A stretch of 64,000 nt of DNA from SAR86 cluster bacterium (GCA_028140145.1 JAOIOC010000001.1:61608-125607); one strand, 5' to 3'. Positions 10,201 to 53,307 are shown, numbered from the stretch's first letter. The notes: generated from the sequence alone by a model not told the origin. Program-made: numbers and translations.

Positions 10201-10385
10201 TAAGGACCTTTATCAATAAATTGCTCAACTTTAAGTTTTGAAATAGTACATAAAATATTATTGGCTTCGCCTAGGGTATTCTCAACTTCATTATTGGCCG
10301 TATAAATCTCTTTTTTATCTTCGTTATAGGATTGAGAGTAGCCAAGAGGACTCAAAATCAACAAAAGTAGTATTATTTTCTTCAT
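7248..10385 (-). CDS. Large secreted protein of unknown function (1045 aa, acidic, Trp/Cys-rich)
   Basis: AGGAGA sits 3 nt upstream of the ATG. Sec-type signal peptide [18 protein letters not shown]. Long uninterrupted ORF with no family motif I recognise. Confidence 0.8.
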
Positions 10386-29305: not shown

Positions 29306-30423
29306 GAAAAATATTTATTTATGCTATTGGATATTTTTTGACTTGCTTGACCGCTGCCATAAGGATTTTTCGCTAGTGACATATTAATGTATTCATCTTG
29401 GTTATCAAGAAGTCTATTAACCTCTGCTACAATTTTTTTTGATTTTGCACCAACCAACTTTGCTGTTCCAGCTTCAATAGCCTCAGGTCTTTCTGTATTA
29501 TCTCTCATAACTAAAACTGGCTTTCCTAGGCTGGGGGCTTCTTCTTGAATTCCACCACTATCAGTTAGAATGATTGTTGATAGCTTCATCAACTTCACAA
29601 AATAAATGTAATTAAGTGGCTCTATAAGGTGGATGTTTTTTGAGGATTTTAAGTATTTATTGACTACAACTTTCACATTTGGATTCAGATGAACAGGATA
29701 AATAATATCTACATCTTCTCTTTTGCTAATTTCTTTCAGCGCCAAACATATTTGCTTAAGCCCTTCGCCAAAGTTTTCTCTTCTGTGACCAGTGACTAAA
29801 ATAATTTTTTTTTCCGGATTAGATAAAAATGGCAGGCTCTTGTTTATGTCATCAGAAAAATTAATTTTTTCAGATTTTTCAGATATCTCTAGCAAGGCAT
29901 CAATAACAGTGTTACCAGTAACCACGATTTTTTTTAATGCTATTTTTTCATTCAATAAATTATTTTTTGCTTTTATGGTTGGTGCAAAGTTTAAAGAAGC
30001 TATTTTTGAAACTACTTGCCTGTTAAATTCTTCTGGATAGGGAGAATGTATATTGTAAGTTCTTAATCCAGCTTCAACATGTCCAATTGGTATTTTTTTA
30101 TAAAAGGCTGCCATTGCACTTGCTAAGGTAGTGGTTGTATCTCCATGAACTAATAGAAGGTCAGGATTTACTTCTTCAATTATATTTCCCAATCGCAACA
30201 AGACCCTAGAAGTAATATCAAATAAATCTTGATCATTTTTCATCGAATCTAAATCAAAATCTGGTTTTACTTCAAAAATTTCTAAAACTTGATCAAGCAT
30301 TTCTCTGTGTTGAGCTGTAACACAAACAGAAACGTCAAAATTTTGTTTTAAGTTATTTACAAGTGGGCACATCTTAATAGCCTCAGGACGTGTACCGAAT
30401 ACGACTAGTATTTTATTTACCAT
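29302..30423 (-). CDS. wecB: UDP-N-acetylglucosamine (or UDP-GlcNAc3NAcA) 2-epimerase, non-hydrolysing
   Basis: ILVVFGTRPEAIKMCPL, HVEAGLRT and TDSGGIQEEAPSLGKPVLVMR. A WecB versus WbpI role is ambiguous. Confidence 0.85.
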   Translation of the reverse strand: MVNKILVVFGTRPEAIKMCPLVNNLKQNFDVSVCVTAQHREMLDQVLEIFEVKPDFDLDSMKNDQDLFDITSRVLLRLGNIIEEVNPDLLLVHGDTTTTLASAMAAFYKKIPIGHVEAGLRTYNIHSPYPEEFNRQVVSKIASLNFAPTIKAKNNLLNEKIALKKIVVTGNTVIDALLEISEKSEKINFSDDINKSLPFLSNPEKKIILVTGHRRENFGEGLKQICLALKEISKREDVDIIYPVHLNPNVKVVVNKYLKSSKNIHLIEPLNYIYFVKLMKLSTIILTDSGGIQEEAPSLGKPVLVMRDNTERPEAIEAGTAKLVGAKSKKIVAEVNRLLDNQDEYINMSLAKNPYGSGQASQKISNSINKYFS

Positions 30424-32087
30424 TTAAATATTGATTTTATCTCTGAGGTTGATTTAGCTTCAGCTTCAAAAACAATTTTTTTCGTTTCTTCTTGAGAATC
30501 AAAAGAATAATTATAAATTGAATCTTCAATTTTTATTTTTTTATTATCTAATCCCGAATAAATAAATGAGATCACAATTTCCTTGTCTGCCAGTTGCAAG
30601 AATATATTATCCTCACTGACTTTATTGATTTTTACGTTAGGGTGTAAAGGAAAGCATAACTTCAAAATATTTTGCTTACCTGAAAGAACATTATCAATTA
30701 TAGTTATTTGATTATTGCATATAGACCACTTTCTTCTATGAACTGGGGATCCAGGTAAATTTGAGTAACCATTGTGTGAAGCTGAAAACTCAATCTCTTG
30801 GTTAGAAAAATTATTTTCTTTAGTTAAAATTTTTGCTCGATTGCCAACTCGAAAACTACTCCATACTTGGCTTGAATTAAGATCGTTAATAATTAAACAG
30901 GAATGATTTGTTGAAGATCGTTCTAAGATTCTCGTTTTGTTAGTTTCATAAGTTGATATTCCAAGATTTACAATTAATTTTTTTTTAAAAAGTGAAAGTT
31001 CGAAACTAAGTGTATCTGCATGAGCATGGCCTGGAAGTTCATCAGGACCAATATTTCCTCGATCAGAAATCAAATAAATATCTTCATCAGAATACACAGT
31101 GTATCCCGAATCATCAAAATCTAAGATTTGTTTATTATTTTCTGATGTTTTAACTCCCATCCTTTTTGCATAATCTATTAGTTGATGGCAATTTAAACAT
31201 TCATCATTTGTGCTATCGTTAAAATGAGATAAAGAGCCATCTGGATGAGTCATTGCTTGCAGCCAGAAAATCATTTTTTTTATAAGACCTTCATCAAAAA
31301 TATCATCCTCTAAAGAAAAAGCTTGATGAATATTTTTTATATCTAACAAATCTTCTAATATTATGGAGTGGTACATCGGAGACAACTCATAATGACTGCC
31401 GTCCTGTAATATTTGAGTATCTAATTGAGATTTCAATAATTCAATTCCCTTTTCATACCAAATACGAGCTTTCTTTCCAGAAAATAAGATGCCTAAGAAA
31501 ATTAATGCTTTAGCATTTGATATTAAATGATTACCACCTAAGTGATATTCTAAATTTTTGTATAGGTAATCTGCTTGAAGAATTAAGTTATTTTTTATTT
31601 TTTTTGGTGGATCGAGATCAAAATATACCAACCACTTGATCCAGTTCACTGTCCTTAGGGAAATTGGATATGGGTCCCATGCTGACCTTAAAAAGTTAAT
31701 GTTTTTATCTATCCAACTATTAACTAATTTTTCAGGTAACCCATTTTGATTTGAAACCTGATTTGAAAGTAAAAAATCAAAATAATTTAAATTATAGTTC
31801 CATAACTTGGGATGATTATTTTCATTCCATAAATCATTATTATTTAGATCGGTAGAAATTTTCATAAAACTAAACGTTTGCTCATCATTTATTTTTGATG
31901 AATTTGGATTAATTAAAATGAAATTTTTTGTTGCTTTATTTAAAAATAAATTGTGTAACTTTGGAGATTTGAGCCTACTGAAAGATTTGAAAAATCTATA
32001 AAAAATTTGTTTTAAAGTGAGAAATTTAATGGTGTTAAAGTAAAGAAGAAAAGCAGGTATAAGACCTTTTATTTTTTTTTTCGTCAC
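30417..32087 (-). CDS. Heparinase II/III-like family protein (cytoplasmic, biosynthetic-locus type)
   Basis: GTG start overlapping the upstream stop (GTGA). LPGHAHADTLSFEL is the hallmark of heparinase II/III-like proteins. No signal peptide. Confidence 0.75.
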   Translation of the reverse strand: MTKKKIKGLIPAFLLYFNTIKFLTLKQIFYRFFKSFSRLKSPKLHNLFLNKATKNFILINPNSSKINDEQTFSFMKISTDLNNNDLWNENNHPKLWNYNLNYFDFLLSNQVSNQNGLPEKLVNSWIDKNINFLRSAWDPYPISLRTVNWIKWLVYFDLDPPKKIKNNLILQADYLYKNLEYHLGGNHLISNAKALIFLGILFSGKKARIWYEKGIELLKSQLDTQILQDGSHYELSPMYHSIILEDLLDIKNIHQAFSLEDDIFDEGLIKKMIFWLQAMTHPDGSLSHFNDSTNDECLNCHQLIDYAKRMGVKTSENNKQILDFDDSGYTVYSDEDIYLISDRGNIGPDELPGHAHADTLSFELSLFKKKLIVNLGISTYETNKTRILERSSTNHSCLIINDLNSSQVWSSFRVGNRAKILTKENNFSNQEIEFSASHNGYSNLPGSPVHRRKWSICNNQITIIDNVLSGKQNILKLCFPLHPNVKINKVSEDNIFLQLADKEIVISFIYSGLDNKKIKIEDSIYNYSFDSQEETKKIVFEAEAKSTSEIKSIFKW

Positions 32088-34210
32088 TTAAATGACTCTG
32101 TTATTTCAATAGCAACTTTTGATACTTCAAAGATTTCCTCAAATGGTATTGGACTGGGCTCTCCATTAGTGATTGCTCTAAAAAAGCTTTCAACGCATTG
32201 ATCATGTCCCTTATTTTGAAAAAGATTTCTAGCAAATTTGAAATTAGGCCAATTGTATCCTTTCAGATTCCTAAAATTATTTAATTGTAAACAAGATTGT
32301 GAGCTAAAAATATCAATTCTTTCTTTAGGAAAAGATTTTCCTCCATTAGATAGATAGTTTATTGATCCCATAGATCCATCTTTGAAATTCATATTTATCA
32401 ATACTTGATCCAATTGAGTGAACTTATCTGGCTTTGTTTGGCCAAAGTTCACACTGTGGCTTTCAATTTCAGACCCTGCAAAAAACCTCATTAGATCTAT
32501 AAAATGACAAGCCTCTCCTATAATTCTCCCTCCACCAACCTCAAGATCTTGCTGCCAATTTTCTTCCTCGATAAAGCCAGCATTTATTGTCATTATGAAT
32601 GTTTTTGGATCTTTATTTTGTTCAAGGAGTTTCTTAATTTTTTTTGATAGTGGAGCAAATCTCCTATTGAATCCAATCATTAAAATTTGACTCGACTTTC
32701 CTCTTTCGTCCATACAAGTTTTTACTTCTTCTAGTTGCTTTAAGTTAATAGCAAGAGGTTTTTCAACAAAAATATTTTTATTATTCTTGATGCCCTCGCA
32801 GACTTGATCTGAGTGAAAATTATGAGGGGTAGCAATAAATACAGTATTTATATTTTTATTTTCCCAAAAAGACTTTTCGTCGGTTGTAATGTCTTTAAAT
32901 TTAAATTTTTTAGCTTGATTATGCGCATTAAGACCTTGAGAAGATAAAATTGAAGCAAACGAGTATTTATACTTTTGTTTTTTTATAGCTGGCAGTAAAG
33001 TTCTCATAGAAAAATTGCCTGGCCCTACTAATCCAATTTCGATTTCTACTTCGTCTTGTGTCTGAACATCTTCATAGATGAAGTCTGTTTTTTGAGTATG
33101 AATTTCTTCATTTTTTGAATATTTAATTAGTGTTGCTAAGTTTTTTTTATCTTCAATTGTTTCATATGCTTTAAGTGAATTATCAACATCAAAAATTTGA
33201 GAGATCAAAGGTTTCATATTTATCTTTTCTTCCGATAATAAATTCAGAAAAGTCTCGAAATTTCTCTGCGCCGTCCATCTTACAAACCCTATTGGATAAT
33301 CTACTCCTCCCTCTTCATAAACTTTATCGTATCTACCTGGCCCATAAGATGATGAAACTTGAAACGAAATTTCTTTTTTATAAAAGTCATCTCTTTTAAG
33401 ATTAAGACCAACTTGACCTACTAAAATTATTCTTCCTCTTTGTCTGGTTGATTGAGCTGAATTATGGATAACAGAATTGCTTTTAGTATCAGCACATATA
33501 ATTGTTCCATCTACTTCTTTTCCTTTGTTGAAAGATATAACACTCTGATAGAAGTCCTCATTATTTTTTAAGCAAATAATTTTAGCTCCAAAGCTCTTAG
33601 CAAGTTGGCACCTCTTTTCATCATGATCTACTCCGATAACATCACAACCATTTGCAATAAGAATCTGAGTTGTGATTAAACCCAATAGTCCAAGGCCAAT
33701 AACAAGAAAAGTCTCCCCTATATTAGGTTTTGCTAGTCTAATTCCTTGAAGCGAGACTGATCCAATAACGGTAAAAGATGCTTCTTCAAAAGTTACTTTT
33801 TCTGGAATCAGTGCACATAGATTCGATGGGACTCTCAATATCTCTGCATGAGGCCCGTTTGAAATCACTCTATCTCCCTCTTTAAACTTTTGGACTGAGC
33901 TTTCAAGAACGACTCCTGCATTTGAATAACCCAATGCTATAGGATCATTTAACTTTGATTTTACTGCCTCATAAGTTGGCAGAATTCCATCTGTTTTTAT
34001 TTTGTCAAAAACTTGAAGAACCCTATCAGACTCACTGATGGCCTTTTGAAGGAGATTAGATCTACCAAAATTTATTAGCATTCTCTCAGTCCCAGTTGAA
34101 ACGAGAGAATATTTTGAAGAGACAATTAAATGATTTTTTATATTTTTCGGCGGAGGTATATCAACAATTGAAGTTTCTCCATTTGAGAGGTTTTGAACAA
34201 TCTGTTTCAT
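32084..34210 (-). CDS. Bi-domain oxidoreductase: N-terminal MDR/zinc-type alcohol dehydrogenase + C-terminal Gfo/Idh/MocA
   Basis: The N-terminal half has a GroES-like region plus VIGLGLLGL Rossmann motif. The C-terminal half has VGPGNF..., FVEKPLA (EKP motif) and an alpha/beta C-domain. Confidence 0.75.
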   Translation of the reverse strand: MKQIVQNLSNGETSIVDIPPPKNIKNHLIVSSKYSLVSTGTERMLINFGRSNLLQKAISESDRVLQVFDKIKTDGILPTYEAVKSKLNDPIALGYSNAGVVLESSVQKFKEGDRVISNGPHAEILRVPSNLCALIPEKVTFEEASFTVIGSVSLQGIRLAKPNIGETFLVIGLGLLGLITTQILIANGCDVIGVDHDEKRCQLAKSFGAKIICLKNNEDFYQSVISFNKGKEVDGTIICADTKSNSVIHNSAQSTRQRGRIILVGQVGLNLKRDDFYKKEISFQVSSSYGPGRYDKVYEEGGVDYPIGFVRWTAQRNFETFLNLLSEEKINMKPLISQIFDVDNSLKAYETIEDKKNLATLIKYSKNEEIHTQKTDFIYEDVQTQDEVEIEIGLVGPGNFSMRTLLPAIKKQKYKYSFASILSSQGLNAHNQAKKFKFKDITTDEKSFWENKNINTVFIATPHNFHSDQVCEGIKNNKNIFVEKPLAINLKQLEEVKTCMDERGKSSQILMIGFNRRFAPLSKKIKKLLEQNKDPKTFIMTINAGFIEEENWQQDLEVGGGRIIGEACHFIDLMRFFAGSEIESHSVNFGQTKPDKFTQLDQVLINMNFKDGSMGSINYLSNGGKSFPKERIDIFSSQSCLQLNNFRNLKGYNWPNFKFARNLFQNKGHDQCVESFFRAITNGEPSPIPFEEIFEVSKVAIEITESFK

Positions 34211-35332: not shown

Positions 35333-36550
35333 TTAGGCGCGAATAATATCGAATTCTTCTTTAGGCTGCAATTTTAAAGAAATAATGTGGATGAAGTAGA
35401 TAATTAAGAGAAAATCTAAACCAAAGTTCCCTCCAGGGGGATTAAAAAAGGATATAAAAACATAAGATAAAATTAGTGGCCTAAAAATATTATTTGTGGA
35501 TTTATATATTCTTAAAAAGAAATATGAAATTAGAATAAATCCAATAAGTCCGAACTCCGCTATTATGTAAATTGGCCCATTAAAAACATCCTGCAGATCA
35601 TCAAGAAGAATTGTTTGACCTCCTGGGCCCATGCCAAAAAGTAAAATTAGAGGGTTAAATTCCAAGAAGTAGAATTGTGTAAGAAATAAAATTACTCTTG
35701 ATCCATTTGTATAATCAAAATTTTGCCAATTTGAATTACTTATGAATTCATTAATCAAAAGAAGTTCTTGATAAACTCTTGTAACGTCTCTCATAAAATA
35801 ATTTTCAGGAATTATAAAAAATAAAAGTATTGAAAAAGGAATTAAATAAAAGAAATATCTGAAATTTCTAAATAAAAAAATAAAAAAAATGTTAGTTAGT
35901 GCGAAAACAACTCCTGTGGCAGAAATAGATAAAGTAAAAGCTAGAAATGAAATTATTTTCATCAAATTACTTTTCGTATCAATTAAAAAGAAATACATAA
36001 AGGTTATCCAAGCAAATATTGAATAATGGGATGGCTCAGGAAAAAGACCTCTCATTCTTGGCCAATTATCTGCAGGATCATGGACTCCAAATGACAGAGG
36101 ATTTAACCCCACAAGATAAATGAGATACAGGAAAATTGAAAAAAATAGGTGAAATTTTAGAAGTTTTATTGAGATTTCAATGAAATCGACATTTTTTCTA
36201 AGTGTTGAGAAAAAATAAATGATGACTAAAGAGTGCATCCAGATAAAAAAAGAAATAAATATAAAGGGTGTTTCGTTTATTGATACTCCAATATTAACCA
36301 GGATATTTCCAATAAAAACTAAAAATAACCATAGAAATAATATAAAAGTAGTTATAGGGATAAAATTTTCCCTTTTATTAATTAATGAAACAACATAAAA
36401 AAAAATTAAGGATAAAAATATCAATATTTCTATGTATCTAAAAGGAATTGAAATCCTCGTGCTTATTCCAAAAGTTAATTGATTAAAGAAAACTGAGAAG
36501 ATTGTGACTATAAACAATAAAGAACTTAAATGTTTTATGCTAATTGTCAA
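35333..36550 (-). CDS. O-antigen ligase/polymerase-family membrane protein (Wzy_C-like)
   Basis: 405 aa with about 10-12 TM helices. A loop RMRGLFPEPSHYS resembles the RxxGxxxxPN motif of the WaaL/Wzy family. Confidence 0.55.
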   Translation of the reverse strand: MTISIKHLSSLLFIVTIFSVFFNQLTFGISTRISIPFRYIEILIFLSLIFFYVVSLINKRENFIPITTFILFLWLFLVFIGNILVNIGVSINETPFIFISFFIWMHSLVIIYFFSTLRKNVDFIEISIKLLKFHLFFSIFLYLIYLVGLNPLSFGVHDPADNWPRMRGLFPEPSHYSIFAWITFMYFFLIDTKSNLMKIISFLAFTLSISATGVVFALTNIFFIFLFRNFRYFFYLIPFSILLFFIIPENYFMRDVTRVYQELLLINEFISNSNWQNFDYTNGSRVILFLTQFYFLEFNPLILLFGMGPGGQTILLDDLQDVFNGPIYIIAEFGLIGFILISYFFLRIYKSTNNIFRPLILSYVFISFFNPPGGNFGLDFLLIIYFIHIISLKLQPKEEFDIIRA

Positions 36551-37564: not shown

Positions 37565-39028
37565 TTAAAAATTTTTGTAAACTCTAATTGTATTTTTTTT
37601 CTTTAAGCCAAACGATCCATAGTAATAATCCTCAAAAGAAGATGAAAGTTTAAAATCATCTAAAAATGTATCTGGAATATTACTTACTCCGGTATTTAAG
37701 CCAAGCTCAATTCCTTCATTTTTAAAGAGATGATAAAGTTCATTAGAAATAAAAATAACTTTTTTATCTCTTAAAATTTCTTTGAAGTTGACCCTGGCTT
37801 GATAGGAATAAAAATCATTTTCTTTAAAAATAAACCAAAAATTATCTGGCCCTACAATAGTGACATCTTGTGTGAGTTCAATTTCTTGACTTGCTTTGTC
37901 GTAAAATCCTCGAAGGTCTGAGGAGTAAAAATTCACTGCATTATAAAGTTGAAAAAATATTGAGTATGAAAAGAGGACGATCAATGACAGCTTCAATATA
38001 GTTTTTCTTTTTTTATAAGAAATACTTATTAAGAAAGCATATAAAAAGGGAAAAAAAATAATCAAATAATGGTGATTCATTCTCCCTAATAAAATATAGC
38101 CAGTTAATCCTCCTAAAAACATCCAAAATGAAGACCTAAATTTTGAATTTTCTAAACTTCTCTTTTCCAAGAAGTAATAGACGCCGATTAAAAGAAATAT
38201 AGGAAAATGTAACCACCGATATAAGGTACTATCAAATCCAAAAAGAAATATCCAAGAAAACCTATCGATCAATGAAGTCGAAATAACTTCATTAGCAAAT
38301 TCTAGGGAATTTTTAATTTCTTGGTAATGATTAATATTATTAAAGATAACAATTAATAATCCAATAAAATAACCTATCAAAAAAAACATTAATTTATGGA
38401 AATTACTTTTTCTAAAGAACTTTTCATCTTTAGAAAGCTCATAAAATATCAAAATAAATATAAATATTTGACTACTCAAATGAATGTCTATCGAGATAGA
38501 AATAAATAAACCAGATGCAATAATTTTTAGAATAGTTTGATTTTTAGATGTAAATAAATACAAAGACATGAATCCAGTTAATAAAACTAAGATTTCTGGT
38601 CTTGCTGAATGAGAACTAAGCAAAAAATGCTCTGAAAAAGAAAGAAATAATACTGCTAGAAGACATATAGTTCTTTCAAAATTTATGTTTCTTAATATTA
38701 AATAAAATAGGATCAAAACCGGGAAAGAGATAATCCATGATAAAAACCTATGCGCATAAATGAGGTTCGTAAAATACAGCATGAAATTTCCATACAAAAG
38801 ATCCATTATTCTTCCATGGCCTATTGCCAGACCAGGCTCTCTGCTCAAAACATCCAGTAAGTAACCTTCTTTAGCAAAATTGTAAGCAAATGAGGCAATC
38901 CATAGACTGTCTCGGTAATAAATCTTAAAAAAATAAAGAGAAAAGTAAGAATAAATTAAAGAGGAAAAAATAAAGATAATTAATAGCTTGTCAACCGAAG
39001 TAAATTTATCAAATTTCAAAGACTTCAT
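37565..39028 (-). CDS. GT-C-type membrane glycosyltransferase (ArnT/PMT/GtrC-like)
   Basis: 487 aa with about 11 TM helices. An early loop YYRDSLWIASFAYNF resembles the first-loop acidic motif of GT39/GT83 enzymes. A soluble C-terminal domain of about 110 aa follows. Adjacent to a GT2 and a GtrA gene. Confidence 0.55.
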   Translation of the reverse strand: MKSLKFDKFTSVDKLLIIFIFSSLIYSYFSLYFFKIYYRDSLWIASFAYNFAKEGYLLDVLSREPGLAIGHGRIMDLLYGNFMLYFTNLIYAHRFLSWIISFPVLILFYLILRNINFERTICLLAVLFLSFSEHFLLSSHSARPEILVLLTGFMSLYLFTSKNQTILKIIASGLFISISIDIHLSSQIFIFILIFYELSKDEKFFRKSNFHKLMFFLIGYFIGLLIVIFNNINHYQEIKNSLEFANEVISTSLIDRFSWIFLFGFDSTLYRWLHFPIFLLIGVYYFLEKRSLENSKFRSSFWMFLGGLTGYILLGRMNHHYLIIFFPFLYAFLISISYKKRKTILKLSLIVLFSYSIFFQLYNAVNFYSSDLRGFYDKASQEIELTQDVTIVGPDNFWFIFKENDFYSYQARVNFKEILRDKKVIFISNELYHLFKNEGIELGLNTGVSNIPDTFLDDFKLSSSFEDYYYGSFGLKKKNTIRVYKNF

Positions 39029-39039: not shown

Positions 39040-39987
39040 TTAAAAATTGATTCTTTCTTTTTCAATTACTAGGGGTTTTTTTCTAACTTGATTAAAAATT
39101 GCCAATATGTATTCTCCCAAAATTCCTATGAAAAATAGCTGAACTCCTCCAAAAAAGAAGAGAGCTACTATAATTGTTGGTATTCCTGCTTGAGAATCAA
39201 CAAACCCAAAGAGCGTCATTATGAAAATTGAAATAGAGTAAAGAATGCTGAGTGAAGAAATTAATAAACCAATAATTAGTGACAACCTTAAGGGAAGTCC
39301 ACTAAAACTTATTAATCCATTTAATCCTTGCTCAAACATTTTTAGAAGACCATTTTGTGATTTGCCGTACTCTCTTGCTCTCCAAGTATATTCAACCCCG
39401 GTAGATCTGAAACCAGCATCAAATGTCATTAACCTCATGAAAGGATTAGCATCTTCAGTTAATTTCATTGCCTCAATTACTTTTTTATCAACCAGTTGAA
39501 AATCTCCTACATTTTCTGGATAGTCGACATAAGTAACTTTCTTTAAAAGCTTATAATAGAGTCTTCGTGAAGTTCTTAAAAAAAATCCTTCCTCTCTTTT
39601 TGCTCTTACTCCATATACAATATCGTTACCCTTTTCCCAAAGTTCAATGAAGTTAGGAATTAATTCTGGTGGATCTTGCATATCAATTGGCATAAACAAA
39701 AGAGTTGCGTCTCCGGAGGAGTTCATTACTCCGTTATAGGTGTTATTCAATAAACCAAAGTTTCTTGAATTAAGTATGATTTTTATATTCTTATCTTTTT
39801 CTGCAATTGATTTCAAAATATCAACAGTTCGATCAGAAGAACAGTTATCACAGAAAATATGCTCATATTCATAATCCTCAAGATTAAGAAAAATATCTTT
39901 AATTGTCTCGTAACATTTTTTAATACCTTTTTCTTCATTAAAGCAAGGAGATATTATTGAAATTAGTTTTTTAGGCATTTTATTCAC
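39040..39987 (-). CDS. Polyprenyl-phosphate glycosyltransferase, GT2 (ArnC/GtrB/DPM1-like)
   Basis: ISIISPCFNEE, CDNCSSDRT and MPIDMQDPPELIPNF, with two C-terminal TM helices. Confidence 0.85.
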   Translation of the reverse strand: MNKMPKKLISIISPCFNEEKGIKKCYETIKDIFLNLEDYEYEHIFCDNCSSDRTVDILKSIAEKDKNIKIILNSRNFGLLNNTYNGVMNSSGDATLLFMPIDMQDPPELIPNFIELWEKGNDIVYGVRAKREEGFFLRTSRRLYYKLLKKVTYVDYPENVGDFQLVDKKVIEAMKLTEDANPFMRLMTFDAGFRSTGVEYTWRAREYGKSQNGLLKMFEQGLNGLISFSGLPLRLSLIIGLLISSLSILYSISIFIMTLFGFVDSQAGIPTIIVALFFFGGVQLFFIGILGEYILAIFNQVRKKPLVIEKERINF

Positions 39988-40343
39988 TAATTTTTATAAA
40001 CAATTTTTTTTAAAAGAACATAAGTTAATGGAACAACAAATATCATGCAGATTAGTTGGGATAAATATTTATTTAGGCTGTTAAAAATTAAAAAATTCAA
40101 AATAGTGAGGTTTAAAAAGTAAATAAAGATATAGATTAATACAAATTTTAAGAAAGGAGAAAAACTTACCTTCTGAAAAACAATTATACCAGTAGAGAAA
40201 TAATTGAAGATTATTCCAAATAGGTAACTTAATGCTAGAGAAACCTCAACCTTAAAGTTTAAAAATATGAAGAAAGAATAAAATCCAAATCCAATCAAAG
40301 TGTTAAGGAAACCTACGGCAATAAACTTTATAAATCTTTCCAA
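39987..40343 (-). CDS. GtrA-family membrane protein
   Basis: 118 aa, four TM helices, N-terminal FIKFIAVGFLNTLIGFGFY. Confidence 0.8.
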   Translation of the reverse strand: MERFIKFIAVGFLNTLIGFGFYSFFIFLNFKVEVSLALSYLFGIIFNYFSTGIIVFQKVSFSPFLKFVLIYIFIYFLNLTILNFLIFNSLNKYLSQLICMIFVVPLTYVLLKKIVYKN

Positions 40344-41273: not shown

Positions 41274-43706
41274 TTATTTGAAATCTTTAAGTTCAAGGAT
41301 ATTAAAAATTTCTCCTTGATATTTTTCTTTAAGGTAATTTTTAATTTCTTTCTTAATATGCCAAGCTAAATTTATTATTATTGGTGGTTGATTTTTTTTA
41401 CTAAATAAATCTTCATCAGACAAGATTGGGATTCTTGTTCCTGGGACGAAATGGCCTATTTTTAAAGAACCTGGTTTTTCATAAACACATGAAATTACAT
41501 TTTCATTAAGTTCTAAAAGTTTAATTAGTATTGCTGCCCTGCCAGGGAAAGCCTTGCATGAAAGAGGGCCATGTTTCTCGTAGAGACTTAAAATATGTTT
41601 TTTTGTTCTCAGCTTCCAAGAATTGATTTGATCATTCATTGATACGAGATCATCAAAAAAATTTTTTTCGCGAGTAAGTATATCGTTTTTACTTAGATTC
41701 TCTTTTGTTTTCTTTTTTGAAATAAATACTCTTATATTTCCACCATATCTTGAGGGAAACTCAACTGATTGGACTTTTGCCTTCAAAGACTTTGCAATGT
41801 GAATAAAAGAATTGAAGCTATAAGTTCTTGGATGCTCATGATAAAAAGTATCAAATTGATACTTCTCTAAAACCGCACCCAAATAATGATTCTCAATCAC
41901 AAGGACTGTATCTTTGTTAGATAAAATTTCTAAAGAATCTAAGACTTCAGGCAGATTTTCAATATGAGCAAAGACATTTGTAAAAGTAATTATATCTGGA
42001 ACACCATTCTCTCTTAGCACTTTCTTTGCAGTAGCTTTTGATAAATAATTGCCATATGACTTATGTCCCTTATCCTGACATTCTTTGTATGCATTAGTTG
42101 GTTCAATGCCAATTGTCTTACAACCTTTCTGACTAAAAAAGTCCAAGAGACTGCCATCATTGCACCCAATATCTAGAACAGTTTTATTTTTCAGCGTTCC
42201 ACAAAATTCCTCACATGAATTTACTAAGTCACTCATACCTTTCAATACATCAGCTGTAAATCTTGATCTGTAGTGATAGTCAGATGGAAATAATTTTTTC
42301 TTAGGAACTTGATAAATTTGATGGGCAGTAAAACAATTTTTACAATAGGCAATTTTTATTGGATATTCCTCACATATTGAATCTTCCGAAGTAGGAATTA
42401 AATCATCACACATTGGATGATTACCTAAATCAAGGACTGGAGATAATTTTTTTGATCCACAGACTTCACAAGCTTTGATTTGATGTAATTTTTTTGAATT
42501 AATTTGTGATTTTTTATTAATAAAATTATCAAAAGAATTATGAACATGATCAATCATTTCTTTTGTTAAACCATTGTGGCAAGCTATGAGAATACCCCCC
42601 CTCATAACCTTATCTGCATTAATAAAATCATCCGCCTTACCAATACAATTTATATTTTTAAAGCCAGGTTGCCTTAAAATATTTCCTGTAAATATAACGC
42701 GGGTTTGTATGTTCCTCTTTTCTAAATATATTTGTAAATCTGTTCTTGTGAAAGGTGAGGACTCTTTAACAATAAGCGGGTAAGCAAGCCATCCCGAATA
42801 AATGTCATCTTTTTCGTAAGGGAGATCTAAAAATTCTTCATACTTAGAAAAAAATTTTTGATGTTGATTGAATATTTCTCTTCTTTTTTTGATACCTTTT
42901 GAAAGACTTTGCAATTGAGTTAAAGCAAAAGCAGAGCTAATTTCTGATGGTTCTAATTGATATCCCATTTCTTCAAAAATAAACTTTGAATCATAAGTGA
43001 TCCCATCTAATGAAACATTGAACCTATTTTCTATTGACTCGCTGTTATCAAAAAGAGATGAAGATCTCCCCCAAGATCTTAGTAATTTTGCTTTCTTAAA
43101 TAATTCTTCATCATTAAGACATAACATTCCACCATTTCCAGCTCCATTTATAATATGAGAACCATAGAAACTTGTTATAGAAAAATCTGAATATTTTCCG
43201 GTAGAAATTCCTTTTATTTTTGCTCCTAAAGTATCTGCACTATCTTGCAAAACAAGCAGATCATTTTTGTCAGCTATTTCTCGAATTTTTGGCCAATTAC
43301 ATATATTTCCAAGTAAATCAGGCGCAAGAATAGCTTTTGTTTTCCCATTTATTTTTTCTTCAATTAAATTTTCATCGATACAGAGTGTTTTTGAATCTAC
43401 ATCAACAAAGCTTGGGATTAATCCTGATTTTACGATTGGTGCGATAGTAGTAGAAAAAGTTAGAGCTGGAGTTATGATCTCGCTTCCTGGATCTAAATTT
43501 AATATATCCATCAAGATATAAAGTGCCGATGATCCTGAGTTAGTCATTAAACCAAAGTCTTTGTTAAAAAGATTTGATATTTTCTTCTCTAGTTTGACTG
43601 TGTTTCTTCCCATCTGAGTAGAGCTATTAAGGACCTTAAGAACAGCATCTATCTCTTTCTTTCCATGTACACTTTTTGCATATGATACTCTAATATTCTT
43701 TTTCAA
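41274..43706 (-). CDS. Fusion: RfbH/E1-like PMP-dependent NDP-4-keto-6-deoxyhexose 3-dehydratase + NDP-hexose C-methyltransferase (TylC3 class)
   Basis: The N-terminal half has the DegT fold with His in place of the Schiff-base Lys (TSFYGSHIINGAGNGG). The C-terminal half has the Zn ribbon CEVCGS...CKNC, the SAM motif VLDIGCNDG, NVFAHIENL, FDTFYHEHPRTYS, and a C-terminal C-methyltransferase domain. Confidence 0.75.
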   Translation of the reverse strand: MKKNIRVSYAKSVHGKKEIDAVLKVLNSSTQMGRNTVKLEKKISNLFNKDFGLMTNSGSSALYILMDILNLDPGSEIITPALTFSTTIAPIVKSGLIPSFVDVDSKTLCIDENLIEEKINGKTKAILAPDLLGNICNWPKIREIADKNDLLVLQDSADTLGAKIKGISTGKYSDFSITSFYGSHIINGAGNGGMLCLNDEELFKKAKLLRSWGRSSSLFDNSESIENRFNVSLDGITYDSKFIFEEMGYQLEPSEISSAFALTQLQSLSKGIKKRREIFNQHQKFFSKYEEFLDLPYEKDDIYSGWLAYPLIVKESSPFTRTDLQIYLEKRNIQTRVIFTGNILRQPGFKNINCIGKADDFINADKVMRGGILIACHNGLTKEMIDHVHNSFDNFINKKSQINSKKLHQIKACEVCGSKKLSPVLDLGNHPMCDDLIPTSEDSICEEYPIKIAYCKNCFTAHQIYQVPKKKLFPSDYHYRSRFTADVLKGMSDLVNSCEEFCGTLKNKTVLDIGCNDGSLLDFFSQKGCKTIGIEPTNAYKECQDKGHKSYGNYLSKATAKKVLRENGVPDIITFTNVFAHIENLPEVLDSLEILSNKDTVLVIENHYLGAVLEKYQFDTFYHEHPRTYSFNSFIHIAKSLKAKVQSVEFPSRYGGNIRVFISKKKTKENLSKNDILTREKNFFDDLVSMNDQINSWKLRTKKHILSLYEKHGPLSCKAFPGRAAILIKLLELNENVISCVYEKPGSLKIGHFVPGTRIPILSDEDLFSKKNQPPIIINLAWHIKKEIKNYLKEKYQGEIFNILELKDFK

Positions 43707-43762: not shown

Positions 43763-44632
43763 TTACGAATTTAAGAAATCAGCTATACCATCATTCAATG
43801 TATAGCTTGGGGACCAAGACCTTGGATTTGGTAAATTAATTTCCATTCTAGGTCTTTCATAAGAAGTTTTTTTTCCATAATGGATGAAATTTGAATAAGG
43901 AAAGTCATCTACTTCCTCAAAAATAGATACTAATTGTTTGAGAGTTACATAATTTTGTGGATTCAAAGAAAATTCATACAACTCACCGTTACTCTCCTTT
44001 TTTCTTACTTGATTCCTAGCTAAAAAAATTCCTTCAACTGCATCTTTTATCTGCAGAGGATTTATGAGTTGATCAGGATGAGTCAATTGAATGATTTTTT
44101 TTGTCTTTTTAATACTCTTAATTAAATTAAAAATTTTTCCTCTTCTATCCCCTCTCCCATACACATCGTAGAGCCTTATCGTAGATATTTTTAGACCATC
44201 ATTTGCAAAAACCTTCATAGTTTCTTCTGCTGCAGTTTTCGAAGCCGCATAAAAATTAGAGGGATTCAAGTTAAGTCTTTCATCAAATTGCCAATATGAT
44301 CCAAAATGAAAAATTTCAGTTTCCGAGGAGTACTTTTTAACTGCCTTACAAACGTAATTTGGCAACAAAATATTAGAGGATACTATTTCATCGATAGTTT
44401 TATATGAATCTGAATAATCAATCTTTGAACCGCAAATAAAAATGCTAGCAATTTTATGATTTCGAATTAATCCCTCTAAATTATCTTGGAAGCTCTTCTT
44501 TTTATTTGGTCTGTAAGAAATGTCAAAAACTATTTCCTCTCTATCTCTTAAAAATAACTCAAGATTTTTGCCTAGAAAGCTTCTCAAACCTATTATTAAG
44601 TTGCTATCTTTTGATAAATTTTTTTTGCCCAT
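43763..44632 (-). CDS. Extended-SDR NDP-sugar reductase/epimerase (CDP-paratose/abequose synthase-like)
   Basis: Degenerate glycine motif IIGLRSFLGKNL and catalytic YAASKTAAEE. Position next to rfbG. Confidence 0.6.
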   Translation of the reverse strand: MGKKNLSKDSNLIIGLRSFLGKNLELFLRDREEIVFDISYRPNKKKSFQDNLEGLIRNHKIASIFICGSKIDYSDSYKTIDEIVSSNILLPNYVCKAVKKYSSETEIFHFGSYWQFDERLNLNPSNFYAASKTAAEETMKVFANDGLKISTIRLYDVYGRGDRRGKIFNLIKSIKKTKKIIQLTHPDQLINPLQIKDAVEGIFLARNQVRKKESNGELYEFSLNPQNYVTLKQLVSIFEEVDDFPYSNFIHYGKKTSYERPRMEINLPNPRSWSPSYTLNDGIADFLNS

Positions 44633-44643: not shown

Positions 44644-45753
44644 CTACGAGCATTGAGTGTATTCATTAATTTGCCGAAGAGTGATAGCTTCCATATCTTC
44701 TCCATTTTTATGAGACAAATACCAGTCAATTAAATTATCAAGAGTTTCTTTAAGAGTTAATTTAGGTTCCCAATAAAGTAAATCTTGAGCTTTATCACAA
44801 TTTAATTCTAAGTATTTTGCTTCAGGCAGAGGTTCTTTTTCTGGTTTGGTCCAGCCTACTTTTTCGGGCCAAGAACTATCTATGTACTCTACAATCCACT
44901 CTACCGTTTTCAAATCATAATCTTTTGGACCAAAGTTCCAGCCTGAACAATAAATTGAATTTTTACTATCATAAATTTTTTCCGCAAGCATTAAATAGCC
45001 GCTTAAAGGTTCAAGGACAAATTGCCAAGGCCTTACAGAATTTGGATTTCGAATAATAGGTTTTTTATTGTTAATGAAACTAGTTATTACGTCTGGAATT
45101 AATCTATCTCTTGCCCAATCGCCCCCTCCGATGACATTTCCGGCCCTTACACTAGCCAAGAAAATATTTTGGTTGGAATTCTCTTTATTAAAATAAGACT
45201 TATTATAAGAGTTAGTAATAAGTTCTGCACATCCTTTGCTGCAACTATAAGGATCAGAGCCGCCGAGTCGATCGCTTTCCTTAAAGGACTTTTCCTCATT
45301 ATCATTTTCGTAACATTTATCGCTGGTGACATTTATAGCAATTTTGTCTGCATCAATATGCCTTAATGCTTCAAAAAAATTTATAGTTCCAATGATGTTG
45401 GTTGAAAATGTATCATAAGGATTAGCATAGGATTCATTAACAAGGGGTTGTGCTGCTAAATGAAAAGCTATGTCAAAATTAGACCTTTTAACTATCTTTT
45501 TAAAAGAATCTCCGTCACGTATATCTCCAAAATGACAATCTGTATTATCTTTTAAGTTTAAAATCGAAAATAAGTTTCTATCTTCTTCAGGGGCTAAAGA
45601 ATAACCAGTTACTTCAGCCCCCATGTTTAGTAACCAATAAGATAGCCAACTCCCTTTAAAACCAGTATTTCCTGAAATAAATACTTTTTTATTCTTCCAA
45701 AAGTCTTTATTTACTTTTCCCATAGTCTCCAAGGAGCGCTGTTGGTTCTCCAT
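44644..45753 (-). CDS. rfbG: CDP-glucose 4,6-dehydratase
   Basis: FWKNKKVFISGNTGFKGSWLSYWLLNMGAEVTGYSL and YSCSKGCAE. The likely real start is the internal Met at 45723 (MGKVNKDFW). Confidence 0.88.
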   Translation of the reverse strand: MENQQRSLETMGKVNKDFWKNKKVFISGNTGFKGSWLSYWLLNMGAEVTGYSLAPEEDRNLFSILNLKDNTDCHFGDIRDGDSFKKIVKRSNFDIAFHLAAQPLVNESYANPYDTFSTNIIGTINFFEALRHIDADKIAINVTSDKCYENDNEEKSFKESDRLGGSDPYSCSKGCAELITNSYNKSYFNKENSNQNIFLASVRAGNVIGGGDWARDRLIPDVITSFINNKKPIIRNPNSVRPWQFVLEPLSGYLMLAEKIYDSKNSIYCSGWNFGPKDYDLKTVEWIVEYIDSSWPEKVGWTKPEKEPLPEAKYLELNCDKAQDLLYWEPKLTLKETLDNLIDWYLSHKNGEDMEAITLRQINEYTQCS

Positions 45754-46484
45754 AGTTCCTCTAGATTATTTTTATCTCTTAAGGTGTCCATTGGCTGCCA
45801 GAAGTTCTTATGAAAAAACGCTCGCATCTGATTATTAGATGCAATTCTTTCCATAGGATCTCTCTCCCATATAGTTTGGTCATTATCAATGTAATCAATT
45901 ACTTTTGGGGAAAGAACAAAAAAACCTCCATTTATCCATGAACCGTCTCCATCCGGCTTTTCCTTGAAACTTAAAATTTTATCTTCTTCTAGCTCAAGTG
46001 AACCAAACCTTCCTGGAGGAAGTACAGCGGTAGTCGTTGCAAGTTTTTTATGTGATTTATGGAAATTAATTAAATCTCGAATATTTACATCTGACAGCCC
46101 GTCGCCATAAGTAAAACAAAAGTCCTCTTTATCTAAATAATTTTTTACCCTCTTTAATCTGCCTCCGGTCATAGTATCATTTCCAGTATCTACTAGAGTT
46201 ACTCTCCAAGGCTCTGAAGAATTTGAGTGGATGATTGTTTCATTCTCAACTAAATCTATGGTCATATCAGAGGAGTGAAGAAAATAGTTTGCAAAATATT
46301 CTTTAATTAAATAACCCTTGTAACCACAGCAAATGATAAATTCGTTTATTCCATAATATGAATAGATTTTCATAATATGCCAAAGAATTGGTTTGCCCCC
46401 TATCTCGATCATTGGTTTTGGCCTCAAATTAGTTTCCTCGCTAATCCTAGTACCAAGACCTCCAGCCAGTATTACAACTTTCAC
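45711..46484 (-). CDS. rfbF: Glucose-1-phosphate cytidylyltransferase
   Basis: [58 protein letters not shown] and a C-terminal FWQPMDTLRDK. Confidence 0.9.
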   Translation of the reverse strand: MKVVILAGGLGTRISEETNLRPKPMIEIGGKPILWHIMKIYSYYGINEFIICCGYKGYLIKEYFANYFLHSSDMTIDLVENETIIHSNSSEPWRVTLVDTGNDTMTGGRLKRVKNYLDKEDFCFTYGDGLSDVNIRDLINFHKSHKKLATTTAVLPPGRFGSLELEEDKILSFKEKPDGDGSWINGGFFVLSPKVIDYIDNDQTIWERDPMERIASNNQMRAFFHKNFWQPMDTLRDKNNLEELWRTNSAPWRLWEK

Positions 46485-47566
46485 AGATTTTCCTTAATGA
46501 ATTTAATTTGGTTTAAGTCAAAGTTACCATGAATAGGTAAACTAAAAAGCTCTCTATCCGATATCCAAGCAAAACCATCTTCATCTCCTTGATTTAGGTA
46601 ATTGAATGCTTTCAATTTAGGTAAGGCAATTGGGTAATGAATGCCGGTCTCTATTCCAGCATTCGATAGTTTTTCTCTAATTGCATCTCTTCTATTAGAT
46701 CTAACCACAAATAAATGGAATACGTGTCTGACATTTTCTTTAATATTGGGTAATTTTATTTCGTCAATATCACTTAATTGTTTGATATATTCCATAGCAG
46801 TTTGAATCCTTACTTTTGTCCACCCCTCTAGATGTTTAAGTTTGACACTTAAAATAGCTGCTTGTATTCCATCAAGTCTAGAATTTCTTCCTTCAAACTC
46901 ATGGTCATACTTAGCTATTCTTCCATGATTGGCAATTTTTTTACATTTTAAATAAAGCATTTCATCATTTGTAATAATTGCTCCAGCATCACCAAATGCA
47001 CCAAGATTTTTTCCTGGATAGAAGCTAAAACAACCTAAGTCCCCAAATGTTCCAACTTTTTTTCCCTCATACTCTGCTCCATGAGCTTGCGCACAATCTT
47101 CAACTACCTTCAGAGAATGATTATTTGCTATCTCTATGATTTCTTTAATTTGGCAAGGTTGGCCATACAAATGGACTGCGATTATTGCAGAAGTATTTTT
47201 TGTAATTCTTTTCTTAAGATCATCTAAGTCAATATTATAATCAAACGGACTTACATCGCAGAAAACAACCTTAAAATTATTTCTTGATATTGCTTCAGCT
47301 GATGAAATAAAACTATTTGCAGGGACAATAATTTCACTACCAACAGGAAGATTTAATGCTTCAAGGGAAATTTCCAAAGCATCAGTTCCATTTCCAACGC
47401 CCAAACAATATTTAGACTCATGGTATGTTTTAAATTTTTCTTCAAATTCAATAATTGAATTTCCTCCAACAAAAGAAGACTTAGATATTGTTTCTGAGAT
47501 AGCAGAATCAATTTCATCTTTGATTGACAAATACTGCTGATGTAAGTCCAAAAATTTTATCTTCAT
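46481..47566 (-). CDS. DegT/DnrJ/EryC1-family PLP aminotransferase (WbpE-like)
   Basis: [18 protein letters not shown], and [16 protein letters not shown] with the catalytic Lys. Confidence 0.85.
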
Positions 47567-48153
47567 ACTTGTTCAACTTTCCCTATGATTTTTGCTGGAT
47601 TCCCAGCAACTATACTAAAATCAGGAACATTTTTGGTTACTACTGAACCAGCACCAACTATAGAATGTTGACCAATGACTATCGATGGTAAAATCGTTGA
47701 GTTTGCTCCCAAAACAGCAAATTTCCCAATTTTTGGGCCTTTTAAATTTTTTTTTGAATCTGGTCGATTTGGGAACTTTGAATTGGTAAAGACAACATTT
47801 GGTCCAATCCAACTATTTTCTTCAAGAACGCTATATTCCGGGATAAAAACCTGAGAATGTATCCTAACGTTATTTCCAATTTTTACGTTATGTTCTATTA
47901 CAGAATGCGTTCCAACTGAGACATCATTTCCAATTTGATTATTCTCTCTAATATTGGCCTTATTACCAGTAATAAAATTTTTACCGATATCATTTCCCTG
48001 ATAAATGTATGTCCCGGAGCGAATGTAAGAATTGTTACCAATTGAACATTCTCGATTTGCTTCTTTTATGGGAATGCCTACTATACAAAATTCCTCAATC
48101 AAAACATTTTCACCAAGTGAAACATCTGGATAAATTATGTAATTACCTTTCAT
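47563..48153 (-). CDS. Left-handed beta-helix (hexapeptide) N-acetyltransferase (WbpD-like)
   Basis: Repeated [LIV]-G-x4 hexapeptide pattern throughout. Lies between the aminotransferase and oxidoreductase genes. Confidence 0.8.
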
Positions 48154-48167
48154 CTTTTCTAAATTTT

Positions 48168-49223
48168 TTAGTTTCCAAGCTTAGTTTCAGGAATTTCCGA
48201 AGACATATAGACTTCTTTTCCAGTCTCAATTGAGTGATAAATTGCGTTGATAAGTTGTAAACTTTTTCTACCCTCTTTTCCATCAACGATATCTTTTCCA
48301 TCATTGTTAATACAGTCAACAACACTATCATAATAAGACTTATGTCCAAATCCATATACATTTGGCGGATTTTCAGAAAATCTTTCTATTACTTCCTTAT
48401 CATCAGCAGTAGAATCCTCGAAATTCCATGTATTCATTTTATTTACAGAGAACCCACCGATTACAACGCTTCCTTTTTCCCCCATTATAGAAAGTGAGCC
48501 TTCTAAATCTTTGGGTCTTGTAGCTGTAGTTGCTTCGATGATTCCTAAAGAACCATTTTTAAAATTTAAAATAACTACAGCAGTATCTTCAGTTTCAATC
48601 TTTGCAATGGCTTGAGTCGATCTAGCAAATACTGAATCTACTTCGCCAAGCATCCACTCTAGAAGATCAATATGATGACTCGCTTGATTAGTAAGAACCC
48701 CCCCATCATTCAACCAAGTACCTCTCCATTCATCTTGATCATAATATTCTTGATGTCTTGCCCATCTAACTCTCGTAGTTCCCATAAAAATTTTGCCGAA
48801 TCTATTTTCTTCTATTGCTTGACGTAGTTTTTTGACTGGTACGTTAAACCTATTTTGCTTTACAACAAAAAGTAAACATTTATTTTTTCTACAGGCTTCA
48901 ATCATTAAATCTGCATCTTTCAATTTAAGCGCCATTGGTTTCTCGACAATGATATGTTTTCCATATTTAGAAAGTTCTATAACATTGCTAGCATGCATCC
49001 CGCTAGGTGTTAAAACTACCGCGACATCAATATCTTCTGAAAGCATCATTTTATGCATATCTTCGTAGTAGGGAATATTGTATTTACTTGCAATATCAAT
49101 ACATTTTTCTAAATTTGGATCGCAAACAGCAACTAATTTTGCACCTTTGATATGATTTTCCCCTAGTAGCTGAGAATGACGAACTGCTATCCTTCCACAA
49201 CCTATTAAAGCAAATTTAAGCAT
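48168..49223 (-). CDS. Gfo/Idh/MocA oxidoreductase (WbpB-like UDP-GlcNAcA 3-dehydrogenase type)
   Basis: [22 protein letters not shown], and the gene order with WbpD/WbpE-like genes. Confidence 0.8.
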
Positions 49224-52576: not shown

Positions 52577-53307
52577 TTTTTTTCTTTGAATTTAAATAAT
52601 AGATCGAATCTGTACCATGAATCAGATGGTAAAGTTTCGACAAAAATATTTGGTCCTTCATAGTGCCTTTTTAACATTTGAGCATCCCACCAGAAACTAT
52701 TATGATCATATTTTTTCTTATTTTTGATAAAGATAAGGATTAATCGAAACCAAAATAATATGTAATTTTGAATGGAAAATTTTTTTGGTTTGAAATATTT
52801 TATTCTGCATTTGATATCTGGGATAGACATATGAACTATAAAACCATTTGGATTTAGAATAGCTTGAAGGTTTTTTGATAAGTTGATGCTTGAAATGTAA
52901 TCAAAATATTGGATCAAAGAAAAGGAGAAAATTAAATCAAACTTACCTAAGCCTTGATATCCATCTAATATATTTAAATTATAGTAAGAAGTATTATCTA
53001 AAAGATATTTTTCCTTTGCAGTCTCTATATTCTGTGAAGAAATATCAATCCCAATAAAATCTATATCCGGATAAAGTTTAGCAAAACTGGATAAAACCTT
53101 TCCTTCGCCGCAACCTACGTCCAGAATTCTCTTCACTTTGTATTTTTTTAGTATTTCACCAATTCGTAAGTCATAGTGGCTCAAATGTTCCTTGACAACA
53201 TTTTCTTTAGTATTTCTAAGTAAATTTTCATTAGATCCATCAAAAAATTTTTTTAGTGATTCCCAATTTTGCATATTTAAATTTAAAAGGTTAAAGATAT
53301 TTTTCAA
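52573..53307 (-). CDS. Class I SAM-dependent methyltransferase
   Basis: Motif I ILDVGCGEGK and post-I/II FDLIFSFSLIQYF. Confidence 0.75.
   Translation of the reverse strand: MKNIFNLLNLNMQNWESLKKFFDGSNENLLRNTKENVVKEHLSHYDLRIGEILKKYKVKRILDVGCGEGKVLSSFAKLYPDIDFIGIDISSQNIETAKEKYLLDNTSYYNLNILDGYQGLGKFDLIFSFSLIQYFDYISSINLSKNLQAILNPNGFIVHMSIPDIKCRIKYFKPKKFSIQNYILFWFRLILIFIKNKKKYDHNSFWWDAQMLKRHYEGPNIFVETLPSDSWYRFDLLFKFKEKK

Follow-up and report, generated by a model that had tools for sequence, protein, structure and literature searches.

A predicted iron-sulfur-free, His-type sugar 3-dehydratase domain fused to a sugar C-methyltransferase in a SAR86 CDP-sugar cassette

We analysed a stretch of 64,000 nucleotides from SAR86 cluster bacterium (GCA_028140145.1 JAOIOC010000001.1:61608-125607), a marine gammaproteobacterium; the stretch is hereafter referred to as the window. 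On its minus strand, at positions 41274-43706, lies an open reading frame (ORF) of 810 amino acids which is a genuine gene and, as comparisons with known proteins indicate, joins a predicted iron-sulfur-free, His-type sugar 3-dehydratase domain to a predicted sugar C-methyltransferase. The gene probably encodes a bifunctional enzyme of a cytidine diphosphate (CDP)-sugar pathway, in which a ColD-like dehydration would be combined with C-methylation to provide a sugar for a surface glycan; the product would most likely be an unusual branched dideoxy sugar for the cell surface. In the classic case of C3 deoxygenation of CDP-sugars, the enzyme E1 needs an iron-sulfur cluster and the dedicated reductase E3. 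As far as the database matches indicate, the fusion brings two known enzyme types together in a way that is new and rare, and is not a new kind of system. An earlier interpretation made from the DNA alone, referred to below as the sequence-only reading, had proposed a single 810-residue dehydratase/C-methyltransferase ORF, which the ORF listing and the Pfam domains confirm, the ORF being located on the minus strand. The elements of the gene are as follows.

41274..43706, minus strand: whole fusion ORF, 810 amino acids plus stop, TTG start (ORF listing and translation; ORF also present on 16 other contigs)
42507..43706, minus strand: N-terminal DegT-fold domain (residues 1-400), predicted His-type, iron-sulfur-free, sugar 3-dehydratase-like; Pfam PF01041
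43155..43157, minus strand: codon of His184, which MAFFT aligns with E1 His220, ColD His188 and the Schiff-base Lys of aminotransferases; invariant in 15 clade members
43041..43082, minus strand: loop LRSWGRSSSLFDNS (residues 209-222), which takes the place of the E1 iron-sulfur loop WGRDCYCAPGCDNTC; no cysteine
42471..42521, minus strand: junction INKKSQINSKKLHQIKA (residues 396-412), where the domains meet end to end with hardly any linker; A-rich DNA, no in-frame stop
42288..42470, minus strand: four-cysteine zinc ribbon of the methyltransferase (C413, C416, C455, C458); Pfam PF08421, 1.8e-12, aligned with the N-termini of MtmC and TcaB9
41790..42197, minus strand: class I S-adenosylmethionine (SAM)-binding domain (residues 504-639); Methyltransf_23, PF13489, 4.4e-15; VLDIGCNDG at 510-518, predicted catalytic Y622-x-E624-H625
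41322..41747, minus strand: C-methyltransferase C-terminal domain (residues 654-795); Methyltransf_14, PF08484, 2.6e-12

The TTG start is directly preceded by the purine run GAGAGAG, and upstream of it there are only five sense codons before a stop codon is reached. Alignments with homologues begin at residue 5. The next ATG corresponds to residue 32, and a start at this position would remove conserved sequence.

The N-terminal domain matches DegT_DnrJ_EryC1 (PF01041) over residues 15-391 with an E value of 4.9e-78. It was aligned by MAFFT with E1, ColD, six iron-sulfur-type RfbH homologues, three Lys-type aminotransferases and 14 close relatives. In this alignment His184, located within TSFYGSHIINGAGNGG (residues 178-193 of the fusion ORF), occupies the column of the Schiff-base Lys, as had been claimed by the sequence-only reading. 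The comparison made there with the neighbouring aminotransferase (46481-47566, minus strand) likewise holds, since translation and alignment place the Lys that binds pyridoxal 5'-phosphate at the Schiff-base position of the latter. Besides H184, the cofactor-binding residues NSGSSA 56-61, F84, D155, D158 and S179 are invariant across the 15 clade members.

The ligands of the [2Fe-2S] cluster of E1, which we take to be C193, C251, C253 and C261, align with A, S, L and I in the N-domain of the fusion. Thus, the check on the E1 cysteines that had been called for shows all four to be absent. The fusion reads WGRSSSLF where E1 reads WGRDCYC...C, and in 80 of 80 related species loci no Cys is found within 18 residues after WGR. 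The absence of all four cluster cysteines rules out an E1/E3-type electron relay via an enzyme-bound cluster and favours ColD-like chemistry. His-type DegT enzymes are dehydratases; in E1 and SpnQ, electrons pass through a [2Fe-2S] cluster of the enzyme itself, which in E1 is bound by four cysteines; ColD has no cluster and no reductase, hydrolyses the enamine and regenerates pyridoxamine 5'-phosphate (PMP) from glutamate (PMC8987622). As the cluster ligands are missing, the ColD route remains the open one. This reductase-independent option, one of two raised previously, is the one favoured here, with turnover assigned by analogy only.

The best solved relative of the N-domain is E1 (3BCX; E 7.4e-60 over residues 12-396, 206 bits), followed by ColD (approximately 2e-39, 139 bits). 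A PDB search with the active-site region alone returned nothing closer than E1, and the entry 9WVY, titled "putative NDP-4-keto-6-deoxyglucose-3-dehydratase", matches the fusion protein at E 3.9e-24. With the NCBIfam RfbH equivalog model the N-domain scores 277.7 bits, under the cutoff of 423. Its active-site loop is one residue longer than that of E1, as in aminotransferases, and in a neighbour-joining tree (no bootstrap) its relatives form a branch of their own, apart from the iron-sulfur type and from ColD. On the strength of the alignment (the His, the lost cysteines and the residue following the His) and of the RfbH score, we assign the N-domain as a predicted His-type PMP enzyme that is not an E1 orthologue.

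The motifs of this iron-sulfur-free His clade are matched by at least 590 species-level genomes. Its gene context was followed in the best 80 species loci (L012-L090) from the contig search of these genomes, which include SAR86, Legionella, Rickettsiales, Chlamydiae, Chitinophagaceae, Endozoicomonas and Pelagibacteraceae. The His is kept in all 80. Both CDP-glucose genes are present at 41 of the 80 loci, and a YerE-like thiamine diphosphate (ThDP) enzyme at 20 (Legionella, Rickettsiella, Coxiellaceae, Chlamydiae and others); a C-methyltransferase occurs at two, fused in one and adjacent in the other. The clade mostly consists of stand-alone enzymes encoded directly after the 4,6-dehydratase gene. 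In one member (P0008) the fusion partner is a CDP-glucose 4,6-dehydratase-like domain, and in others it is a 4,6-dehydratase or an RmlC-like cupin. The known acceptor of YerE is CDP-4-keto-3,6-dideoxyglucose (PMC9306805), and in a parallel cassette an iron-sulfur-type homologue holds the equivalent slot. Because of this slot and the co-occurrence with YerE-like enzymes, formation of CDP-4-keto-3,6-dideoxyglucose from CDP-4-keto-6-deoxyglucose is supported as the predicted activity of the clade. Moreover, the YerE co-occurrence suggests that yersiniose- or erwiniose-like branched sugars may be made without E1/E3. Outside the window, the DegT homologues P0251, P0152 and P0107 are interrupted by inteins, as indicated by Hint, Intein_splicing and LAGLIDADG domains.

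The C-terminal half matches the solved enzymes MtmC (4RV9, 2.7e-35), TcaB9 (3NDI, 6.5e-29) and KijD1 (1.1e-28) over its full length. The zinc ribbon (Methyltransf_13, PF08421) spans residues 413-473 with an E value of 1.8e-12, and the positions of CEVC (residues 413-416) and CKNC (residues 455-458) were checked. The segment FDTFYHEHPRTYS holds Y622-H-E624-H625, and the FYHEH of the fusion aligns with IYDEH of TcaB9 and IYHEH of MtmC; the catalytic residues of TcaB9 are reportedly Y222, E224 and H225. By its conserved motifs this half is a predicted C-methyltransferase of the TylC3/TcaB9/MtmC class in which the zinc cysteines, the SAM motif and Y-x-E-H are all kept. Pfam and the alignment thus uphold the former assignment to the TylC3/EvaC class on the basis of a four-Cys ribbon and a SAM motif. 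The stand-alone relatives of this half form a large family, 58-76% identical, with only generic names in the databases searched.

We asked whether the ORF might be produced by an assembly or homopolymer frameshift error that joins two adjacent genes at the A-rich junction. The DNA of the junction contains runs of A6 and A7, and most relatives of either half stand alone. In addition, the NCBI record MDA9729449.1 (P0125) annotates a protein of 415 amino acids that is 100% identical to the C-half (41274-42521, minus strand) and starts at the internal Ile396 codon. Against this, the 90% identity cluster of P0001 comprises 15 sequences, at least 10 of which are full-length 810-residue proteins, from NCBI, ENA, JGI/Tara and Logan. 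One allele of the fusion recurs, always in the same gene order, on 16 independent contigs from metagenomes or single cells; compared with the window, 80 of its 2433 nucleotides differ (49 synonymous and 26 non-synonymous codons, distributed over both halves) and there is no indel. The allele in L007-L010 runs in the same frame through the junction, with one substitution there. The single-cell genome SAR86 cluster bacterium AG-337-I17 also carries the fused ORF, at 96% identity, and an independent fusion is present in an unrelated high-GC organism. We therefore rejected the artefact, which is extremely unlikely; a junction error had been named beforehand as the finding that would undo the fusion, and the cluster members, the 16 contigs and the indel-free allele rule it out. 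The annotation MDA9729449.1 thus records the methyltransferase half of the gene only, with the fusion truncated there. At the junction INKKSQINSKKLHQIKA, what would be the end of a separate dehydratase essentially runs straight into what would be the beginning of a separate methyltransferase. The G+C content of the window is 31.7%. In the N-half, codon changes are 26 synonymous and 14 non-synonymous, and both halves show purifying selection.

The architecture is rare. In a word-index search of 5.8 billion proteins, it is complete in P0001 and P0002 only among the best 120 matches. Among the top 150 of 1.84 billion representatives, just two further proteins, P0216 and P0248, combine DegT and C-methyltransferase; they carry the two Pfam families in either order, are 28-29% identical to the query and retain the Schiff-base Lys; by this residue they are predicted aminotransferase fusions and not dehydratases. 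On contig L004 (8001-10160), the first part of a zinc ribbon is present at the end of P0010, and the ORF that follows shares 58% identity with the methyltransferase of P0002, so that the two look like a third His-dehydratase/C-methyltransferase fusion, broken by frameshifts on an error-prone contig. The database search that had been suggested for this architecture thus returns it from SAR86, from P0002 and, in fragments, from P0010, and we rejected the notion that it is common. No description of the fusion or of an iron-sulfur-free CDP-type 3-dehydratase was found in open-access papers and preprints.

P0002 (834 amino acids, from a high-GC organism) is 38% identical to the query. The N-domains of the two share 55% identity, which is no closer than to stand-alone relatives, the methyltransferases only 23%, and each of the two methyltransferase domains has stand-alone relatives at 58-76% identity. 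These values argue that the query and P0002 fusions arose independently, with two different C-methyltransferase lineages. The P0002 cassette encodes a cytidylyltransferase, a 4,6-dehydratase, the fusion, a short-chain dehydrogenase/reductase (SDR), a family 2 glycosyltransferase (GT2) and GtrA. Stappia sp. BW2 has the same cassette with dehydratase and methyltransferase genes unfused, adjacent and 154 nucleotides apart, and P0014 lies in a cluster that contains both genes. We propose that the fusion may have joined two formerly adjacent genes acting on the same intermediate.

In the window, the fusion gene is embedded in the following cassette.

45711..46484, minus strand: glucose-1-phosphate cytidylyltransferase, first pathway step; NCBIfam TIGR02623, 465 bits (cutoff 300)
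44644..45753, minus strand: CDP-glucose 4,6-dehydratase, predicted to supply the 4-keto-6-deoxy substrate; NCBIfam TIGR02622, 462 bits (cutoff 278)
43763..44632, minus strand: SDR of 289 amino acids, probable ketoreductase or epimerase; Pfam Epimerase, 1.5e-16; an SDR also follows the fusion P0002
40351..41268, minus strand: weakly Gfo/Idh/MocA-like protein (GFO-like) of 305 amino acids, probable ketoreductase; Pfam GFO_IDH_MocA, 1.6e-4, under the family cutoff
39987..40343, minus strand: GtrA-like small membrane protein, putative flippase for a lipid-linked sugar; PF04138, 5.9e-13; also in the P0002 and Stappia cassettes
39040..39987, minus strand: GT2 glycosyltransferase (GtrB-like), putative sugar transfer to polyprenyl phosphate; PF00535, 4.6e-28; also in the P0002, Stappia and L094 cassettes
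37565..39028, minus strand: membrane protein of 487 amino acids, putative periplasmic transferase; weak protein O-mannosyltransferase (PMT)/GT-C match, Pfam PMT 2.1e-5

As both upstream genes score above their equivalog cutoffs, the substrate pool is predicted to be CDP-4-keto-6-deoxy-D-glucose. The two enzymes would generate CDP-glucose and then this keto-sugar, as shown at the family level. By analogy with ColD, the N-domain would form a ketimine with PMP at C4, remove the C4' proton and expel the C3 hydroxyl; having no cluster, it could not be reduced via E3. The enamine would most likely be released by hydrolysis, yielding CDP-4-keto-3,6-dideoxyglucose and ammonia, and an amino donor, for example glutamate, would restore PMP. 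The C-domain would use an enolate to methylate a carbon adjacent to the 4-keto group, most likely C3. Judging from gene content, the ketone would be reduced by the SDR, the GFO-like protein or both. The GT2 enzyme would link the sugar to polyprenyl phosphate, GtrA would flip the lipid-linked sugar across the membrane and, given the weak GT-C match, a GT-C enzyme would attach the sugar to a surface glycan. The GT2, GtrA and GT-C matches suggest a lipid-linked transfer to a periplasmic acceptor. Heptosyltransferase-family genes are also detected near the cassette by Pfam.

The sequence-only reading had noted that no E3-like protein is recognisable in the window and had considered the GFO-like neighbour as a possible substitute. 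The first point holds: no Fer2, FAD_binding_6 or NAD_binding_1 domain was detected by Pfam in 60 ORFs, comprising every non-overlapping ORF of at least 100 amino acids apart from 58434-58769 and 63245-63925. The plant-type motif C-x4-C-x2-C-x20-40-C is absent from all six-frame ORFs of at least 60 amino acids in the window, in a motif scan unvalidated on a true E3. A pattern combining the ferredoxin motif with R-x-Y-S, unvalidated on a genuine E3, gave only a coincidental PRTYS inside the methyltransferase in the window and nothing in the 80 related loci. Two iron-sulfur-type homologues, P0108 and P0089, are also without an adjacent E3 within 6 kb, and adjacency of E3 is thus not diagnostic.

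The second point is not supported. The GFO-like protein has no significant PDB or NCBIfam match, and the P0002 cassette contains no GFO-like gene. Conversely, L094 (4926-10346) has no dehydratase and encodes a 59%-identical methyltransferase, a 32%-identical GFO-like protein (1e-44), a 65%-identical GT2 enzyme and the two CDP-glucose genes. L095 (5898-10732) is similar, with CDP-glucose genes, a C-methyltransferase (58-59% identity in L094 and L095), a GFO-like protein of approximately 300 amino acids and a GT2 enzyme. The gene thus tracks the methyltransferase: the GFO-like protein appears to accompany this enzyme and not the dehydratase, and is more likely a ketoreductase of the methylated keto-sugar than a substitute for E3. 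On these comparative grounds we rejected it as an E3 stand-in. The L094 and L095 cassettes probably make a CDP-6-deoxy-C-methylhexose, and the occurrence of their methyltransferases without a dehydratase indicates that the family may accept a 3-hydroxy 4-keto sugar.

Several observations weigh against a bifunctional enzyme with ColD-like dehydration. The residue after His184 is Ile, which leaves the N-domain without the second His that completes the HH pair in E1 and ColD; in sequence it is closer to E1 (32% identity) than to ColD (29%). The ColD-like turnover of the iron-sulfur-free clade is argued by analogy, and no studied or assayed member of this clade was found in open-access papers and preprints. 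The E3 screen covered the window, and an E3 could be encoded elsewhere in the genome. Possible channelling between the two domains, as raised in the sequence-only reading, is suggested by the fusion alone. Finally, the close stand-alone relatives of the methyltransferase (58-76% identity) are mostly found in cassettes without any dehydratase; the fused methyltransferase may for this reason act on a 3-hydroxy sugar first.

The last observation bears on the order of the reactions. If CDP-4-keto-6-deoxyglucose were methylated first, the His domain would remove a tertiary 3-hydroxyl; alternatively, the methyl group might be transferred to C5. The dehydratase-free CDP-glucose cassettes L094 and L095 speak for such a scheme. 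Against it, the sequence does not distinguish the two orders, the solved relatives MtmC, TcaB9 and KijD1 are all C3-methyltransferases, and a reversed order alters the intermediate and not the type of enzyme. We consider this scheme improbable, though worth keeping in mind. It is distinctly unlikely that the N-domain works like E1 or SpnQ and receives two electrons from a general reductase (ferredoxin or flavodoxin with its reductase) encoded elsewhere instead of using an amino donor. SpnQ does use general reductases (PMC8987622), similarity is highest to E1, and iron-sulfur-type homologues often lack an adjacent E3; however, E1 and SpnQ both need their own cluster, the ligand cysteines are missing here and the loop is Cys-free throughout the related loci, and the window contains no E3-like gene. 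Similarly doubtful is a direct chemical coupling of the domains, in which the nucleophilic 3,4-enamine (glucoseen) of the His domain would be handed directly to the SAM domain and methylated at the enamine carbon, in place of methylation of an enolate. This would give a 3,6-dideoxy-3-C-methylhexose, and the clade would represent a third mechanistic class of sugar 3-dehydratase; to our knowledge, such a hexose is not known from any described glycan. The lack of the Lys and of the HH pair together with the RfbH score under the cutoff could also be taken to indicate that the His domain is a degenerate aminotransferase retained to bind substrate or to act as a scaffold for the methyltransferase. 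This is very unlikely, as the cofactor-binding residues and His184 are invariant in a clade found in hundreds of species genomes, synonymous codon changes prevail in the N-half, and the clade mostly occurs as a stand-alone enzyme directly after the 4,6-dehydratase. ColD-like dehydration combined with C-methylation is the scheme that we favour.

Other genes of the window deserve mention. Directly upstream of the CDP cassette, a Gfo/Idh/MocA oxidoreductase, a hexapeptide acetyltransferase and the Lys-type DegT aminotransferase form a trio (46481-49223, minus strand), which presumably resembles the WbpB/WbpD/WbpE pathway for acetamido sugars and is a pathway separate from the CDP cassette. A further fusion of 708 amino acids (32084-34210, minus strand) combines ADH_zinc_N with GFO_IDH_MocA and adjoins a heparinase II/III-like gene (30417-32087) and uridine diphosphate (UDP)-sugar genes. 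For large ORFs of 1045, 511, 342 and 405 amino acids (7248-10385, 53291-55854, 35333-36550; minus strand), Pfam returned nothing at the thresholds applied; where they fall within the glycan cluster, they may encode membrane proteins that resemble polymerases, ligases or transporters. A PdxH-like pyridoxamine 5'-phosphate oxidase is encoded at 17383-17976 (minus strand), approximately 24 kb from the PMP-dependent domain, and is probably a housekeeping enzyme unrelated to it.

The findings point to a widespread E1-like clade without cluster ligands, located in cassettes where E1 would be expected. If the clade works without a reductase, one enzyme and an amino donor could suffice to make CDP-3,6-dideoxy and branched sugars, which would be useful for glycoengineering. 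Two independent fusions and an adjacent unfused pair provide Rosetta-stone evidence for a branched dideoxy sugar pathway. SAR86, one of the most abundant groups of marine bacteria, would carry the sugar on its surface, and its surface glycans are plausible targets for recognition by phages and grazers. At least one public record, MDA9729449.1, lists the methyltransferase half of the gene only.

Compared with known systems, the C-half shares the zinc ribbon, the SAM fold, the C-terminal domain and Y-x-E-H with the MtmC/TcaB9/KijD1/TylC3 class (PDB 4RV9, 3NDI, 5T6B); the latter are stand-alone enzymes acting on deoxythymidine diphosphate (dTDP) sugars in antibiotic pathways, whereas the enzyme described here is fused and lies in a CDP-sugar surface-glycan cassette. 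P0216 and P0248 likewise unite DegT and C-methyltransferase in one polypeptide, but are of the Lys type. The GtrA-like, GT2 and PMT/GT-C-like genes directly downstream are reminiscent of the three-component Gtr system (GtrA, GtrB, GtrC) and of ArnC/ArnT; unlike in Gtr systems, a branched dideoxy sugar activated with CDP would serve as donor instead of UDP-glucose, and GT-C is represented by one weak Pfam match.

With E1 (CDP-6-deoxy-L-threo-D-glycero-4-hexulose 3-dehydrase, AscC/DdhC/RfbH; PDB 3BCX/3BB8) the N-domain shares the fold, the His that replaces the Lys and the substrate context, with genes for a cytidylyltransferase and a CDP-glucose 4,6-dehydratase directly upstream. It differs from E1 in the missing four [2Fe-2S] cysteines, the Ile in place of the second His, the additional loop residue, the RfbH score under the cutoff, the lack of an E3 partner in the window and the fused methyltransferase. 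ColD (guanosine diphosphate (GDP)-4-keto-6-deoxymannose 3-dehydratase; PDB 2GMS/3GR9) differs in its HH pair, its shorter loop and its separate branch in the tree, at 29% identity, and uses GDP-mannose-derived substrates, in contrast to the CDP-glucose context found here. Like ColD, the N-domain is of the His type and has no iron-sulfur cluster ligands, and it is the reductase-free turnover of ColD that we propose for the fused enzyme.

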